From a virus (taxonomy: Duplodnaviria > Heunggongvirae > Uroviricota > Caudoviricetes): a stretch of 15,276 nucleotides of DNA. Of this stretch, positions 4,937-15,276 are shown piece after piece (position 1 is the first letter of the stretch; every line of letters starts with the position of its first letter). Location of the stretch: IMG/VR virus record IMGVR_UViG_2778261168_000006. One strand, written 5' to 3'. A model generated the notes under the pieces. That model ran no database searches. It was given only the letters and a program-made list of their open reading frames with translations, and was not told the DNA's origin. The translations under genes were made by a program, and so were the position numbers.

Positions 4937-5221
4937 ATGAATATTTCAAACGGGCACAACGGTGCTCAGGGCCACTCCTTGCCTGAAAAACACTATACCG
5001 GTGCTTTTGCCTATGGGTTGTCAGAGGACGGTTTCGGAAAGCTGGCCAGAGCCAGAAAGGCCTGCGACATGCTGCAGCTTCTCTTTTCTGAATACCCGTC
5101 TCAGGGCGGAACGCTGGATGCAGGCTGTGCGCCAGGCATTGCCGCGCTGATGGAGTACCTGCGGGCAGATTTGACGGATATTGCGCACAGCTGCGCACTG
5201 ATTGAAGGAGGTGCTGAATGA
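4937..5221 (+). CDS. hypothetical protein, 94 aa, early operon
   Basis: ATG at 4937 with GGAG at 4924-4927; stop overlaps next start (ATGA at 5218-5221). Confidence 0.5.
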   Translation: MNISNGHNGAQGHSLPEKHYTGAFAYGLSEDGFGKLARARKACDMLQLLFSEYPSQGGTLDAGCAPGIAALMEYLRADLTDIAHSCALIEGGAE

Positions 5222-5601
5222 ACCAGCCGCAGGTTTCCATTTTCCCGGCAGAAATGACCACCGCACTGTACCGGCGGGCGATTGCATCGGCATGGCGGCA
5301 GAAAATGCTGACCGAAACCGGCAGTAATCGGTGTGGTCCGCACAGCCTGACGGTTGAGCGTATTGAAATGGCCATTGCCCTGCATATTGAGTGCGCACTG
5401 ATTAACGAGTACGGCGAAGAACAGGGCGCCGCTGTCGCGCTGGCACTGCTGACTGACATGCTGGAGCCGTCACTGCTGACTGCGCCGCCGGTACTGACCG
5501 TGCGCGGCTGTGAAGTGATGGCGGAGCTGTACCGCACGCTTCCGGCGGCCTTTGATGATTTCTGCAGCACGGGTGTGGCGCTGTATCAGGGGGAAGTATG
5601 A
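5218..5601 (+). CDS. hypothetical protein, 127 aa, early operon
   Basis: ATG at 5218 preceded by AAGGAGGTG; stop overlaps primase start (ATGA at 5598-5601). Confidence 0.5.
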   Translation: MNQPQVSIFPAEMTTALYRRAIASAWRQKMLTETGSNRCGPHSLTVERIEMAIALHIECALINEYGEEQGAAVALALLTDMLEPSLLTAPPVLTVRGCEVMAELYRTLPAAFDDFCSTGVALYQGEV

Positions 5602-9968: not shown

Positions 9969-10241
9969 ATGGCACTTAAATGTCCTGAATGCGGTACGAC
10001 GGCACACGCCAGAACCTCCGCCTATGAAGCTCCATCGGTTAAACGCTCATGGTATCAGTGCCAGAACCTGGAATGTTCCTGCACATTTACCGCACTCGAA
10101 AGTGTGGATACGATAATTATGAAGCCCCGGCGCAATGTAAATGTACCAGTCGAACCGGAGCAACCTGAAAAGCAGCAGAGAACGCTCAATCGCTATGGCT
10201 CCGCGTCAAAGCTGTCAGGCCGTCAGCAAATCCCGGTCTGA
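9969..10241 (+). CDS. Ogr/Delta-family zinc-finger late-gene transcriptional activator, 90 aa
   Basis: MALKCPECGTTAHARTSAY...RSWYQCQNLECSCTF..ESV matches the P2 Ogr signature (CPxC...AHARTS...YxQCQNxxCSxTF). ATG at 9969 with AGGAG at 9956-9960 preferred over the track's GTG at 9960. Single-finger size, unlike the duplicated P4 Delta. Confidence 0.8.
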   Translation: MALKCPECGTTAHARTSAYEAPSVKRSWYQCQNLECSCTFTALESVDTIIMKPRRNVNVPVEPEQPEKQQRTLNRYGSASKLSGRQQIPV

Positions 10242-10262
10242 TTAGCAAAAAACGCCCACGTA

Positions 10263-10289
10263 ATCCCGGTCCTGTACCGGGATTTTTTA
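10263..10289 (+). terminator. rho-independent terminator of the late operon
   Basis: Perfect 8-bp stem ATCCCGGT / ACCGGGAT with 5-nt loop, followed by TTTTTT (10284-10289), 22 nt after the delta-like stop. Confidence 0.7.
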
Positions 10290-10332
10290 CGCCTTTTCCC
10301 TGGCTGGCCTGAGAGCGCGTGAGTGCATGTCT

Positions 10333-10371
10333 ATGGCGCATGAAAACGCATGAGTATCATGCGCCATTTTT
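10333..10371 (+). other. second structured element: 11-bp inverted repeat plus T-run
   Basis: ATGGCGCATGA (10333-10343) / TCATGCGCCAT (10357-10367) with 13-nt spacer, followed by TTTT. Could be a tandem terminator or a protein-binding palindrome. Confidence 0.3.
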
Positions 10372-10440
10372 GACGCGAAAGCCCTTGTGCGGCAGCTTCT
10401 GAGACGATTTACGGGGTGCATGAAAACCAGTCTGTTAAGC

Positions 10441-10470
10441 GAAGCGGGCAGGCGGGCGGGGCTGTGCGAT
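10441..10470. other. GC-rich tract, candidate cos (packaging) site
   Basis: GGCAGGCGGGCGGGGCTGTGCG lies immediately after the late operon, where P4 has cos, and partly resembles the P2/P4 cohesive-end sequence as I recall it (GGCGAGGCGGGGAAAGCAC). Match is imperfect; hypothesis only. Confidence 0.3.
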
Positions 10471-10670
10471 GTTTGTATGCGACTCGTTTATTTTTCTTGG
10501 CTTTGTGTGCGGTAAGAGAGCCTATCAAGCTGGGCTTGGCGAAAGGAAGCGTATTTTCTATTGAGAAGCCTATAATTGCTCTGAGGCCTCGAGTATGCTT
10601 CAAACGCAGCTTACAAGGTTGATTATGTCACTTCGCTTTTTTTTGTCTTCTTCTGGGATGCTGGGAAAAA

Positions 10671-10699
10671 CTTCAAATCTGGCTAAAATTGAAGTAATA
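10671..10699 (+). promoter_or_regulatory. candidate sigma70 promoter for the cargo operon
   Basis: TTCAAA (10671-10676), 17-bp spacer, TAATAT (10694-10699) in an AT-rich leader about 90 bp upstream of the cargo start. No TGT-N12-ACA dyad was found here, so this operon is probably not Delta-dependent. Confidence 0.3.
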
Positions 10700-10786
10700 T
10701 CAGGCAGTCATACTGAATAATAATGTTACTAATTTTTCATTGAAACTATTAGCTTAGTGGTTTTCACACAGTAGAAAGGATTTAAG

Positions 10787-11710
10787 ATGAAAGTCAGACG
10801 AATTGGAATTTCTTTAACTAATAAAAATAAAACAATTCGCTTTTCCGATTTTATAAATTACTTAATCCCATTCAATGGGGAAAGAATGGGGTTTGATGGA
10901 GGGGAGCGCTTTTTCCTTTTCCACGAAGATGATGTGTTTTTTTCAGGTGTCGTTTTATCCTTTAAGGATCAGCGAAGAGATTGTAGGGCAAGATTTCAGG
11001 ATGGACAATTTACTATCCATACAGCTGATATTCTTGATGATGAAAAGTTGATTGATTTTAATTTTTTTGTTGTTAAGAAAAGCTCTTTGAAAGGCCTTTA
11101 CGAGTACTATCATAACTCTTGCAGTATACATGTTTTGTTTGCTTTGTTACGTAATAAATTCAATGCGTTGAAAGCGGAAAAAATTTCTAATTATATTGCT
11201 GATAATTTGGCTTTGGGGCGTGAAAAGGCTGAGGCTAAGGGTAAAAAGGAGTATGCAGGAAGACTCTCTACTTCTATCTTAATTGATAATAGAGATATAC
11301 CTACAGTCCTAGCTGAATACGCTAAGGTTAAGAAAATAGAAATGTTGTTTGATGCTCAGCAATTTGCTGTTGGGCATGCAGTTGCACTACAAAGGAGTTC
11401 GCGCGAGGTTAAAGTATCTTTTAATATCACGGATTCTGAACAATCGAATATTGATAGACTAACCCAAGGCGTAGTTGAGCTTGCAGGCAATGTAGGTTTC
11501 AAAAAAGGTAGTGTCAGTACTGTAGATAGTCATGATATAGAGCGAACTATTTCTATCTTAAATTGTCCTAAGAGATTAGGTGAGTGTGAGTTCGAAGATT
11601 TAGCTCATAGGATTGATGGCTTGACAGTGGAGAATTTTCATGAAAATGAAATACTTGTCGAGCTAAAAAGGGAAATAAACGAGGGGGAGTATCGTGCACT
11701 CTTTAATTAG
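10787..11710 (+). CDS. cargo gene A: hypothetical soluble protein, 307 aa, AT-rich; candidate component of an uncharacterised anti-phage system
   Basis: ATG at 10787 preceded by AAAGGA; AT-rich ORF with no hydrophobic segments; no known catalytic motif recognised by eye (no GS...DxD nucleotidyltransferase signature, no Walker A, no HxH/PD-(D/E)xK pattern I could place). Its 3' end overlaps gene B by 17 bp. Confidence 0.65.
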   Translation: MKVRRIGISLTNKNKTIRFSDFINYLIPFNGERMGFDGGERFFLFHEDDVFFSGVVLSFKDQRRDCRARFQDGQFTIHTADILDDEKLIDFNFFVVKKSSLKGLYEYYHNSCSIHVLFALLRNKFNALKAEKISNYIADNLALGREKAEAKGKKEYAGRLSTSILIDNRDIPTVLAEYAKVKKIEMLFDAQQFAVGHAVALQRSSREVKVSFNITDSEQSNIDRLTQGVVELAGNVGFKKGSVSTVDSHDIERTISILNCPKRLGECEFEDLAHRIDGLTVENFHENEILVELKREINEGEYRALFN

Positions 11711-12287
11711 ATATATAGCTCAGTTCCCTATGGCCAGTATTTTTAAACAAATGCTGGGTATTGTTATTTTCTCGCTAATCCTAGTGTGTGGTATTGCATT
11801 TCTGTATTATAAGTATGGATTCAGCATTACCTTAGAGAAAGATACTACTTTCTTTAATTATTATGAATCAAAAATAAGAGGGTATCTTTTTTCAGGCTTC
11901 ATTTCTGTTGGCTCTTTTTTGTTGTCATTACACACTTTTGTAATAGTAAATCTTAAAGATAAACTTTTTGATTCAGAAGCATATAAAAATAATTATATAG
12001 ATTTTAAAAGTCAACAGATTAGAAATTTCACCGCTGATATGATTAAACCATATGAGTACTATGCTCCTTTGAATGTTCTATCAGTCTTCCTTAATGTTTC
12101 TATATGGTTATCGATTATTACTGCTGTTATACAGTTTACACTTGGCTTTTATGATAACTCATATACAGCTCTTTTTTGTATGTACCTGGCTCTTGTGACT
12201 GTCCTCTTCCTCTTAAATTGCCTGATACTTATACGCTGTAACATTAAAGTTTGGCTAACACTTGAGCAAAAAAATAAACCTAAATAA
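11694..12287 (+). CDS. cargo gene B: hypothetical integral membrane protein, 197 aa, four predicted transmembrane helices; candidate effector/sensor partner of gene A
   Basis: GTG at 11694 preceded by GAGGGGGA (11681-11688); alternative ATG at 11730. Four hydrophobic segments (approx aa 20-38, 63-86, 126-150, 158-181) with positively charged flanks. AT-rich like gene A. Confidence 0.65.
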   Translation: MHSLIRYIAQFPMASIFKQMLGIVIFSLILVCGIAFLYYKYGFSITLEKDTTFFNYYESKIRGYLFSGFISVGSFLLSLHTFVIVNLKDKLFDSEAYKNNYIDFKSQQIRNFTADMIKPYEYYAPLNVLSVFLNVSIWLSIITAVIQFTLGFYDNSYTALFCMYLALVTVLFLLNCLILIRCNIKVWLTLEQKNKPK

Positions 12288-12291
12288 GCAA

Positions 12292-12332
12292 TGCCCCTAC
12301 CATTAAAGCATGAACTGAGTAGGGGCACTTTT
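12292..12332 (+). terminator. terminator candidate after the cargo operon
   Basis: 9-bp stem TGCCCCTAC (12292-12300) / GTAGGGGCA (12319-12327), 18-nt loop, followed by CTTTT. Confidence 0.35.
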
Positions 12333-12398
12333 GGGGGCATAAGAAAAAATATGGCAAATAAAGTCCTTTAATTTCAATTTGTTATGCTTATATTTTGT

Positions 12399-12415
12399 TC
12401 CTATTATCGGCACCA
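12399..12415 (+). repeat. attR core: duplicate of the tRNA-Thr 3' end (TCCTATTATCGGCACCA)
   Basis: Exact 17-bp copy of 1428-1444, no tRNA body attached; marks the right boundary of the island. Confidence 0.8.
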
Positions 12416-12541
12416 TTAAAATCAAAGAGTTACCCCATATTTAAATACACCACGTTTCCTCCTGTGCCGCATTTGTGCCATTGTAACCTTGGCAATTCAT
12501 CAAAATACTGTTCTGACATCAGGCAGTGCAGGTGCAGCTAT

Positions 12542-12880
12542 TTAAACCAATTGCTGCCGCCATTCTTTGACGTAGTCAATCAGGGCGCGGAGCTTTGGTG
12601 CAATATTGCGACGCTGTGGGAAATACAGATAGAAGCCCGGAAATTGTGGAAGAAAGTCATCAAGCAGCGATACAAGCTTACCGCTTTCAATATATGGCCT
12701 GAAAGTTTCCTGAGTGGCAATTGTTATTCCTCCGCCGGCAAGAGCCAGCCTCAACATCAGACGCAGATCATTAGTCGTAATCTGCGGTTCAATCGCAAGG
12801 TCGAAAGTTCTCCCGTTTTCTTCAAATGGCCAGCGATAAGGCGCAACCTCCGGGGACTGACGCCAGCCGATACACTTATG
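12542..12880 (-). pseudogene. LysR-family regulator remnant (C-terminal part of the effector-binding domain only; no HTH)
   Basis: C-terminal ~110 aa of the minus-strand ORF (HKCIGW...DLRLMLRLALAGGGITIATQETF...LYFPQRRNIAPKLRALIDYV) look like the end of a LysR substrate-binding domain. The N-terminal part of the track ORF is an out-of-frame overlap with paoD. Resembles the LysR fragment next to paoD in E. coli K-12 (yagP, from memory). Confidence 0.5.
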
Positions 12881-12930
12881 GGTATTTCCCCCGGAGGCGA
12901 GAAAGCGCTCTCCACGCCCGGCCGCAAGGA

Positions 12931-13887
12931 TCAGGACGACGGGGGCAGGCATGAATCCTCCTCCTGATGGAGACGTACAGAGGCGACTTCTGCCAGCACG
13001 GAGAGTGCCAGAGTATGCGCATCCCGGGCTTTGGGGAATATCCCGACGGGTGCCCGGATTTGCGTTGTTTCCTCCCTGGACCATCCCAGCTCGTGGAGCT
13101 TTTGCAGACGTAACGTGTGGGTTCGATAGCTGCCCAATGCGCCGAGATAAAAGGGTTTTGCTTCTCGCGCGGCCTGCAACACTGGCAGCTCCCGGTTGAG
13201 ATCATGGCACAGCAAAATGACCGCCGTATCGGTATCGATCTGAGCGCTGGCTGAGGCCGGAAAAAGATCGAAGATATGGCTGTCATAGCCTGTGGCTGCT
13301 GCAAGACTCGCAGTTGCCTGCGCCTCAAGAGAACGTCCGTAAATCATCAGCCTGACGCATGGCCTGAACCCCACCTCAAAGCCATTGAGATTCCAGCCCG
13401 TTCGGGTTTGCGTGGGCAGGCACACCAGCGATTGTGCTTGCGGATCGTAGCGCAGCCCCGCCGGTTTTCTCTGTTCCAGACGGTTCAGCACGGCGAGCAG
13501 AGGCTGTGCCGAGCGTAGTTTATGGAGCGTCAGCGTGATCCCACCGCCGCAGGGCAGAACGATGTCAAACCACGGCGAACCTTCGCCATAGCGAATTTCG
13601 CGATCGCGGCCTGAGCCCATCATCTCCAGCGCTTCAAAAGCGGCAGCGGCCTCCACGCAGCCGCCAGAGACAAAACCGCAGTAACGACCATCTTCGCGAA
13701 CCACCATCTGCGCCCCGAGCGGGCGCGCTGCGCCGCCGCGTATCTCCACCAGCGTCACCAGCACCGCTCCTTTACCGGACATTAGCGCCTCTACGGCGAA
13801 GCGCAGAATGGTCCGGTGGTCATCGGTGAGAAACGCCTGCTCTGGCTTATGCCAGTGTTCGTCTTTATCAAAAAGCGGGTATGACAT
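12931..13887 (-). CDS. paoD: XdhC-family molybdenum cofactor insertion chaperone for periplasmic aldehyde oxidoreductase, 318 aa
   Basis: Translation MSYPLFDKDEHWHKPEQAFLTDDHRTILRFAVEALMSGKGAVLVTLVEIRGGAARPLG... reads as E. coli PaoD (YagQ); strong AAGGAG RBS on the minus strand at 13893-13898. Confidence 0.85.
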   Translation of the reverse strand: MSYPLFDKDEHWHKPEQAFLTDDHRTILRFAVEALMSGKGAVLVTLVEIRGGAARPLGAQMVVREDGRYCGFVSGGCVEAAAAFEALEMMGSGRDREIRYGEGSPWFDIVLPCGGGITLTLHKLRSAQPLLAVLNRLEQRKPAGLRYDPQAQSLVCLPTQTRTGWNLNGFEVGFRPCVRLMIYGRSLEAQATASLAAATGYDSHIFDLFPASASAQIDTDTAVILLCHDLNRELPVLQAAREAKPFYLGALGSYRTHTLRLQKLHELGWSREETTQIRAPVGIFPKARDAHTLALSVLAEVASVRLHQEEDSCLPPSS

Positions 13888-13896
13888 TGTTTCTCC

Positions 13897-15276
13897 TTAA
13901 ACCACATCCGGCAGCTTATCGAGCAGCTTATCCAGAGTGATGGGATAATCCCGTACCCGAATACCGGTGGCGTTATACACCGCGTTGGCGATAGCCGCGC
14001 TCACGCCGCACAGGCCCAGCTCACCGACACCTTTGGCCTTCATCGGGGAGGATATGGGGTCGGTATCATCCAGGAAAATCACCTCCTGTTTTGGGATATC
14101 CGCATGGACCGGCACCTCATACCCCGCCATATCGTGATTAACGAAGTAGCCCAAACGGTCATCCACCGCCAGCTCCTCCATCAGTGCCGCGCCCATGCCC
14201 ATAGTCATTGCGCCAATGACCTGGCTGCGCGCAGTTTTCGGATTCAGGATGCGTCCTGCAGCACACACAGCGAGCATACGCCGGACCCGAACTTCTCCCG
14301 TCGCGCTATGCACGCCGACCTCCACAAAATGCCCGGCAAAGGTCGACTGCTGGTACTCTTTGCTCAGTGTTCCGAATTCAATGCTCTCTTCCGCTGTCAG
14401 TCTGCCGCCTGCGGTGGCTTCATGTAGCGTGGCGCTTCGGGTACCGTTGGTAATCTTGCCGTCGGCAAACTGCGACTGCTCAGGATCAAACCCGACTGCC
14501 GAGGCAATCATTTCGCGAAGCTTCATACAGGCGGCGTAAACGCCGGAGGTGGAGGTATTCGCGCCCCATTGTCCACCAGAACCCGCAGAAACCGGGAAAC
14601 TGGAATCGCCGAGGTGAACCGCAACCTGCTCCAGCGGTACGCCAAGCATTTCCGCTGCCGTCTGGGCCAGAATGGTGTAGCTGCCGGTGCCAATGTCGGT
14701 CATGTCCGTTTCTACGGTAACGGTGCCGTTTTGTTCGAGGTGAACCCGAGCACCCGATTTTTCCAGCAGATTATTGCGAAAGCCCGCCGCAACACCGTGG
14801 CCGACTAGCCACTCCCCGTCGCGCACCTGTCCGGGTGTGGCGTTGCGCTGCTTCCAGCCAAATTTATCCGCTCCGGTGCGCAAGCACTCGATAAGCTGAC
14901 GGCGAGAGAAGCAGCGCGTCGGGTCGGCGGGGTCAACCTGAGTGTCATTCAGGATGCGAAACTCGACGGGATCGATGCCCGCTTTTTCCGCCAGTTCGTC
15001 GATCGCGATTTCGAGCGCCATCAGACCGGGGGCTTCGCCGGGCGCACGCATGGCGTTCCCTTCCGGCAAATCAAGCGTGGCGAGCCGCAGGCCGGTATGA
15101 CGATTCGCCCCGGCGTAGAGTAATTCGCTTTGCTGTACCGCCGTTTCCGGCGTGCCGCCGGGCAGGTTTCCAGACCAGCTTTCATGTGAGATAGCGGTGA
15201 TTTTCCCGCTCTGGTCGGCACCGATACGCAAGTGCTGAAGGGGGGCGGGGCGGTGCGTGGTGTTATTGGGAATAGA
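13897..15276 (-). CDS. paoC: aldehyde oxidoreductase molybdenum-binding subunit, C-terminal ~460 aa (5' end lies beyond the window)
   Basis: Minus-strand frame stays open to the window edge; translation has the xanthine-dehydrogenase-family molybdopterin-binding C-terminal region; directly upstream of paoD as in the paoABCD operon. Confidence 0.8.
   Translation of the reverse strand, partial: SIPNNTTHRPAPLQHLRIGADQSGKITAISHESWSGNLPGGTPETAVQQSELLYAGANRHTGLRLATLDLPEGNAMRAPGEAPGLMALEIAIDELAEKAGIDPVEFRILNDTQVDPADPTRCFSRRQLIECLRTGADKFGWKQRNATPGQVRDGEWLVGHGVAAGFRNNLLEKSGARVHLEQNGTVTVETDMTDIGTGSYTILAQTAAEMLGVPLEQVAVHLGDSSFPVSAGSGGQWGANTSTSGVYAACMKLREMIASAVGFDPEQSQFADGKITNGTRSATLHEATAGGRLTAEESIEFGTLSKEYQQSTFAGHFVEVGVHSATGEVRVRRMLAVCAAGRILNPKTARSQVIGAMTMGMGAALMEELAVDDRLGYFVNHDMAGYEVPVHADIPKQEVIFLDDTDPISSPMKAKGVGELGLCGVSAAIANAVYNATGIRVRDYPITLDKLLDKLPDVV

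Follow-up and report, generated by a model that had tools for sequence, protein, structure and literature searches.

Features of the thrW-paoD interval

The analyzed window is a stretch of 15,276 nucleotides from the Escherichia coli chromosome that carries the 3′ end of proA, the tRNA gene thrW, an inserted element, paoD, and part of paoC. Between the right end of the inserted element and paoD lies the 3′ part of a gene for a LysR-type transcriptional regulator (LTTR). This locus is the already known yagP-type pseudogene, which has been flagged by the PGAP pipeline in thousands of genomes and is a named gene in K-12. The features of the interval and its borders are as follows.

1369-1444: thrW, tRNA-Thr (CGU)
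12399..12415, plus strand: attR, a 17-nt direct repeat (TCCTATTATCGGCACCA) of the thrW 3′ end (1428-1444), 100% identical
12542..12880, minus strand: 3′ remnant of the LysR-type regulator gene, codons 188-299 plus stop (PF03466, tblastn, DNA homology, and PGAP)
12545..12952, minus strand: chimeric in-frame open reading frame (ORF) of 136 codons (paoE codons 1-24, a shared His-Lys, and LysR codons 190-299), equal to K-12 yagP
12876..12880, minus strand: deletion junction, a 5-nt microhomology (CATAA) found in both the paoD-side and the LysR-side parental sequences
12881..12952, minus strand: 5′ remnant of a MobA/MocA-like NTP transferase gene (paoE), start codon and first ~24 codons, MPAPVVLILAAGRGERFLASGGNT
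12957..12965, minus strand: Shine-Dalgarno-like AGGAGGAGG, 4 nt upstream of the ATG at 12952 and inside the paoD coding sequence
12931-13887, minus strand: paoD, an intact gene for an XdhC-family molybdenum cofactor insertion chaperone (PF02625 and PF13478), annotated as paoD in related genomes

The attR repeat is the right end of a ~10.97-kb P4-like island (island end at 12398/12415), a satellite that encodes an integrase, a primase with Zn-ribbon, Toprim, and DUF927 domains, two Psu-family proteins, and an ogr/delta-like zinc-finger ORF. In E. coli L002 (CP042969), whose thrW site is unoccupied, positions 1-1444 and 12399-15276 of the window align as a single unbroken stretch. An Rfam scan of the whole window at gathering thresholds returned thrW as the only structured RNA, a simple scan of 12250-13100 found no site resembling an intrinsic terminator, and the two promoter-like sites in the same interval were both at chance level. 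The last two ORFs of the island (10787-12287; 307 aa and a hydrophobic 197 aa, overlapping by 17 nt) have 34% G+C against ~51% in the remaining island, and searches with Pfam and PADLOC gave zero matches to either. They occupy the variable cargo position adjoining attR, a slot that in P4-like satellites often holds anti-phage genes.

The minus-strand ORF that ends at 12542-12544 (stop codon TAA at 12544-12542) matches the Pfam effector-binding domain LysR_substrate (PF03466) with E values between 1.4e-14 and 2.7e-14. The match is restricted to profile positions 103-207 of 209 and thus falls short of the complete effector-binding domain of ~209 positions in two subdomains, and a Pfam search of the ORF for HTH_1 (PF00126), the DNA-binding domain expected of a functional LTTR, gave zero matches. 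When the full-length regulator of O157:H7 (WP_000687183.1, 299 aa) was compared with the window by tblastn, residues 188-298 aligned to 12880-12548 at 98.2% identity, while residues 1-187 found nothing in any frame even at E ≤ 10. The identity and the domain match (E = 1.4e-14) establish descent from the LTTR family. The DNA homology to the full-length O157:H7 gene also stops at 12880, and PGAP annotates the same 339-nt pseudogene in other genomes as a LysR substrate-binding domain-containing protein that is incomplete, with its N terminus missing.

The first-pass annotation had assigned all of 12542-12930 to a LysR remnant holding only the C-terminal part of the effector-binding domain. The nature of the remnant is borne out by these searches and its extent up to 12880, whereas the 50 nt from 12881 to 12930 belong to the MobA/MocA-like stump. 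Its further statement that the gene is truncated on the paoD side and not on the island side agrees with the alignments, in which the island-side end (the C terminus and the stop codon) is intact, 126 nt away from attR, and the gene is broken off on the paoD side. The non-coding DNA downstream of the remnant, up to attR, is also common to O157:H7. Reconstruction of a full-length LysR gene by correction of a sequencing error is excluded, as N-terminal LysR sequence is missing from every frame and 2684 genomes share the same junction.

Parental genes and the 6129-bp deletion

The parent protein WP_000687183.1 of O157:H7 carries HTH_1 at residues 5-64 and a complete LysR_substrate domain (profile positions 4-207). 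The remnant shares 98% identity with its residues 188-299, and full-length orthologues at ~85-91% identity are found in Enterobacter cloacae and Pantoea ananatis (~90% in both), Klebsiella, and Leclercia. In general architecture the parent resembles the YafC-like and CrgA-like LTTRs, with NF040888 as its best NCBIfam match (below cutoff) and PDB 3hhg as its best solved relative. It scores 162 bits against the 470-bit cutoff of YafC and is therefore not a YafC equivalog; the remnant corresponds to the last third only of such regulators.

In every context examined, the full-length LysR gene is divergently paired with a gene for a 240-aa SDR oxidoreductase at a spacing of 98 nt, and the wider neighborhood varies. 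The pair (SDR-LysR1) occurs with this spacing in Enterobacter cloacae, in Pantoea ananatis, in a mobile-element context in E. coli, and on a metagenome contig. A LysR gene that diverges from a neighboring gene is the classic regulator-and-target arrangement, and the SDR gene is presumably the regulatory target of the parent LysR. The conserved pairing supports a regulator-plus-target module that has been wholly lost from the window, in which HTH_1, the complete LysR_substrate domain, and the divergent SDR gene of the O157:H7 locus are all missing, together with the LysR-SDR intergenic control region. Because the DNA-binding domain, half of the effector-binding domain, its own promoter, and the divergent SDR gene have been lost, we infer that the remnant is without function and cannot act as a LysR regulator. 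On two E. coli contigs (L092 and L093, 7180-9585), the SDR-LysR pair was observed again, with 86% protein identity, beside resolvase, Tn3-like (DUF4158), and integrase genes, a context which indicates that mobile elements carry the module as well.

Upstream of the LysR part, the reading frame stays open through 12881-12930 to an ATG at 12952, and this portion, MPAPVVLILAAGRGERFLASGGNT, is not LysR-like. It overlaps the final 22 nt of paoD. Relatives of PaoD were scanned in one genome per GTDB species, and the DNA after paoD was read in the 80 loci returned. Most of the Enterobacteriaceae loci among them carry an ORF of 183-188 aa after paoD, with the same N terminus and with a start that overlaps or abuts the paoD end; the genera include Leclercia, Enterobacter, Citrobacter, Franconibacter, Atlantibacter, and Pseudescherichia. 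For convenience we refer to this lost fifth gene after paoD as paoE. The stump in the window shares both the start offset (-21) and the N-terminal sequence of the full-length genes. In two of the loci, L010 (paoE at 10230-10784, N terminus MPAPVVLILAAGRGERFLASGGSTHKLAALLNGK...) and L011 (paoE at 10936-11490), the DNA alignment with the window is continuous through paoABCD and ends at 12876. The L010 protein belongs to the MobA-like NTP transferases (PF12804, E = 2.9e-26), and its best NCBIfam match is the equivalog model of the MocA/YgfJ cytidylyltransferases, below cutoff. Based on the shared N terminus and start after paoD, the continuous DNA alignment, and the MobA-like assignment of the L010 protein, bases 12881-12952 are the 5′ stump of a fifth pao operon gene that has been lost. 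The sequence upstream of the start reads CATCAGGAGGAGGATTC/ATG, where the slash marks the start of the gene, and the ribosome-binding site native to paoE is AGGAGGAGG.

The gene context of paoE is likened to that of MocA, PucB, and other MobA-like cytidylyltransferases encoded beside XdhC-family chaperones, such as pucA-pucB and the xdhC-mocA pairs of Arthrobacter and Oligotropha; in other bacteria, mocA homologues paired with genes for XdhC-family chaperones have been described (PMC2997495). In the chimeric ORF, the likeness to this group lies in the first ~24 codons with the motif LAAGRGERF, whose DNA shows homology to the beginning of the NTP_transf_3 gene found after paoD in other Enterobacteriaceae. 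The difference is that E. coli retains only ~24-27 codons, and a Pfam search of the 136-aa ORF gave no match to NTP_transf_3, a domain of ~160-190 residues. The E. coli pao operon has been described as ending at paoD (PMC2997495; PMC3909100), and the synthesis of MCD in E. coli is assigned to the unlinked mocA (ygfJ) (PMC2997495). The pao operons of L010 (NZ_JBOFIN010000094.1, labelled as a Scandinavium sp. MAG) and L011 (labelled as a Pluralibacter MAG) show 91-94% DNA identity to E. coli, far closer among the loci returned than those of the other Enterobacteriaceae genera. Their homology to E. coli is limited to the operon, from a point between yagU and paoA to paoE codon 27, which hints at horizontal transfer of the pao operon or at mislabelled bins.

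The ancestral arrangement, here called the long form, is still found in O157:H7 (L006). Read from paoABCD, it contains a paoE fragment of 27 codons, the genes for an MFS transporter and an alpha/beta hydrolase in the opposite orientation, a second LysR gene (LysR2) in the forward orientation, a ykgR fragment, a hypothetical gene and the SDR gene in the opposite orientation, and LysR1 in the forward orientation, followed by thrW. The spacer between paoABCD and the convergent MFS gene is 178 nt, and attR and the thrW island lie beyond the full-length LysR gene. Positions 13999-12876 of the window correspond to L006 4293-5415, and positions 12880-12394 to L006 11545-12030; the two blocks have 5 nt in common, 12876-12880, and the window is without 6129 bp relative to L006. 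The missing segment comprises the MFS transporter, alpha/beta hydrolase, second LysR, ykgR fragment, hypothetical, and SDR oxidoreductase genes and LysR codons 1-187. On the paoD side the deletion ends 50 nt downstream of the paoD stop codon. The junction and its two parental sequences are given below, with a slash at the breakpoint.

Long-form strain L005: ...GGAAATACCCATAA/ATTAAGAG; short string ...ACCCATAA/ATTAAG; read ACCCATAAATTA
LysR1 gene (L006): ...GTGAATCATAA/GTGTATCGG; short string ...AATCATAA/GTGTATC; read AATCATAAGTGT
Window: ...GGAAATACCCATAAGTGTATCGG; short string ACCCATAAGTGTATC; read ACCCATAAGTGT

Since LysR1 is intact and continuous across the right breakpoint in the long form, and since the long form retains two extra paoE codons (AAA TTA, K L) that are the same as in the full-length paoE of L011, sequence comparison identifies the long form as the parent of the short form. 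In the order of events, paoE was first cut to 27 codons and the 6129-bp deletion came afterwards. A single deletion between the two CATAA pentamers removed the segment from codon 26 of the paoE fragment to codon 187 of LysR1, presumably by a microhomology-mediated mechanism. The left breakpoint (L006 5411-5419 versus window 12876-12880) lies only 4 nt from the older truncation point of paoE, a closeness that we treat as coincidence.

The deleted 6.1-kb segment also contains a fragment of a gene for a ykgR-like small membrane protein (L006 9246-9314). Over 117 nt, it shares ~90% identity with the ykgR copy that most E. coli genomes have annotated at another location. A related metagenome contig (L094) has an intact 33-aa ORF of the YkgR family at the same place (1479-1580). 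The copies suggest an old duplication or rearrangement in the region.

Alleles of the interval and islands at thrW

Among 5426 complete E. coli genomes, the junction is present in 2684 (200-nt query centered on the junction, at least 80% of its length matched). A query that joins proA, thrW, the remnant, the junction, and paoD without an island identified the junction beside an unoccupied thrW in 948 of these 5426. The complete 6.1-kb long form was found in 424 genomes (at least 80% of the segment), and the island of the window in 53 (at least 80% of the island). The body of paoE was found in 0/5426, in a search that reached down to ~65-70% identity, and in every E. coli form examined paoE is cut to 24-27 codons. 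A local alignment for decayed paoE sequence past codon 27 in the long form scored 22, against 19.1 ± 2.3 (maximum, 31) for shuffled sequences, and was not significant.

The junction is identical in the window, in L002, in the K-12-like strains L003 and L007, and in Shigella flexneri (L009). In K-12-like strains the island next to it is another one, CP4-6 with intF. The truncation is independent of the P4-like island, because the same junction occurs in the 948 genomes with an empty thrW and beside CP4-6 in K-12-like strains; by parsimony it is also older, and much older, than this island insertion. Both parts of this result had been anticipated by the first-pass annotation, and the comparison with the same locus lacking a thrW island (L002) returned the same remnant and the same junction. 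The truncation is thus shown to be unconnected with the neighboring island. The word "decay" used in that annotation is too strong, as a single clean deletion is seen with no frameshift or internal stop.

The accompanying view that the site has been rearranged more than once is well supported, by the cut in paoE, the 6129-bp deletion, a separate 2051-bp deletion, alleles with IS1, and the various islands inserted at thrW, which differ among K-12, O157:H7, and the window. The 2051-bp deletion characterizes L005-type strains. It spans L006 9602-11652, its two sides likewise overlap by 5 nt, and it took out the SDR gene together with LysR codons 1-223, leaving a remnant of 231 nt. In L005 (NZ_CM128597.1) this remnant was observed at 5153-5383, beside a ykgR fragment. 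L004-type strains carry IS1 and are without the remnant, and some other alleles end against an AbiEii-bearing island. The thrW-paoD interval of E. coli is therefore deletion-prone and multi-allelic and could serve as a lineage marker.

The chimeric reading frame and competing explanations

What these comparisons modestly add is the chimeric nature of the yagP ORF, in which a single 6.1-kb deletion flanked by microhomology joined the start of the lost MocA-like gene to the tail of LysR. Because the deletion happens to be in frame, the 136-codon ORF is uninterrupted, and this chimeric origin explains why K-12 yagP has an open frame of 136 codons with a good ribosome-binding site. In K-12, yagP (b0282) lies beside CP4-6 and paoD and is listed as a pseudogene or as a putative LysR-family substrate-binding-domain protein; the UniRef name of the K-12-type allele is Putative LysR family substrate binding domain-containing protein YagP. 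Locus, ORF, and junction are the same as in the window, where the ORF likewise lies between the thrW attachment site and paoD and where ACCCATAAGTGTATC is shared with the K-12-like strains L003 and L007. The differences are a few substitutions, such as GRGECF in K-12-like strains versus GRGERF in the window, and the occupant of thrW, which is CP4-6 in K-12 and the ~11-kb P4-like satellite here; the remnants themselves are no different. The possibility that a full-length mocA-like gene was fused directly to LysR was also considered as the source of the chimera and was rejected, as paoE is already cut at codon 27 in the long form and its body occurs in none of the 5426 genomes.

Compared with the full-length O157:H7 allele, the remnant differs at 8 of 339 nt, which affect 5 codons synonymously and 3 non-synonymously, too few to separate relaxed from purifying selection. 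All six of the short-form copies examined are free of frameshifts and internal stops. The intact frame and the few differences fit a fairly recent clean deletion. Collectively, it is very probable that the feature is a non-functional LysR pseudogene remnant, of the same allele as K-12 yagP, that arose by one 6129-bp deletion.

Two other histories of the truncation were weighed. The position of the remnant beside attR, at a busy integration site that holds different islands in K-12, O157:H7, and the window, would be consistent with damage from the island side through integration or imprecise excision of a thrW island. This account is refuted by the geometry of the locus, in which the gene is complete at its island-proximal end, with the stop codon 126 nt from attR, what is missing lies toward paoD, and the junction at 12876-12880 contains no island-derived sequence. 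The 948 genomes that share the junction with an empty thrW and the O157:H7 island that stands beside a full-length gene speak against it as well, and we assign it a negligible probability. A somewhat less remote but still highly improbable history is that the short form did not pass through the long form but arose alongside it, when an ancestor whose paoE was still full-length lost the segment from paoE codon 26 to LysR1 codon 187. The ACC CAT AAG (T H K) of the window is indeed also present in full-length paoE (STHKL in L010 and L011), and two paoE breakpoints 4 nt apart are odd under either history. However, this route requires an ancestor that has not been observed and two independent deletions, the paoE body is absent from all 5426 complete genomes down to ~65-70% identity, and the long form holds every base needed to yield the short form in a single event.

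With the ribosome-binding site and start of paoE directly behind paoD, the fusion ORF is probably co-transcribed with paoABCD, and its translation may yield a 136-aa by-product. Translation is hinted at by a two-dimensional gel spot that was assigned to the yagP protein by peptide-mass fingerprinting, with a marginal score of 43 and 3 peptides (PMC3342100), and a Keio yagP mutant is listed with low sensitivity in a boric-acid screen (PMC11502571). In the literature searched, yagP appears only in such screen or gel listings, with nothing on its origin. That YagP is a real translated chimera kept for a function, e.g., titrating another LysR-type regulator or acting with PaoD and PaoABC, would accord with these two records, with the in-frame fusion and its intact start and strong ribosome-binding site AGGAGGAGG just behind paoD, with an ORF that is unbroken in all sampled copies, and with the occurrence of the exact 136-aa sequence on at least 1000 contigs in an exact-sequence look-up. 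We nevertheless consider this unlikely. Of the NTP transferase the protein retains only ~24 residues, the HTH is missing, and so is the opening half of the effector-binding domain. With so little divergence, the frame would be expected to stay intact without selection. The 424 long-form genomes and others with a different truncation or without the remnant indicate that the fusion is not needed by the species. In addition, the peptide-mass fingerprint has a marginal score, and the Keio mutant may reflect polarity or an effect on the paoD 3′ end, which overlaps yagP and would be touched by that deletion. Slightly less likely again is the reading of YagP as a young gene, born by deletion and co-expressed with PaoABCD in about half of E. 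coli strains, that has acquired a function of its own; its parts may be the LysR C-terminal subdomain placed behind the start codon, the ribosome-binding site, and the nucleotide-binding loop of the lost MocA-like gene.
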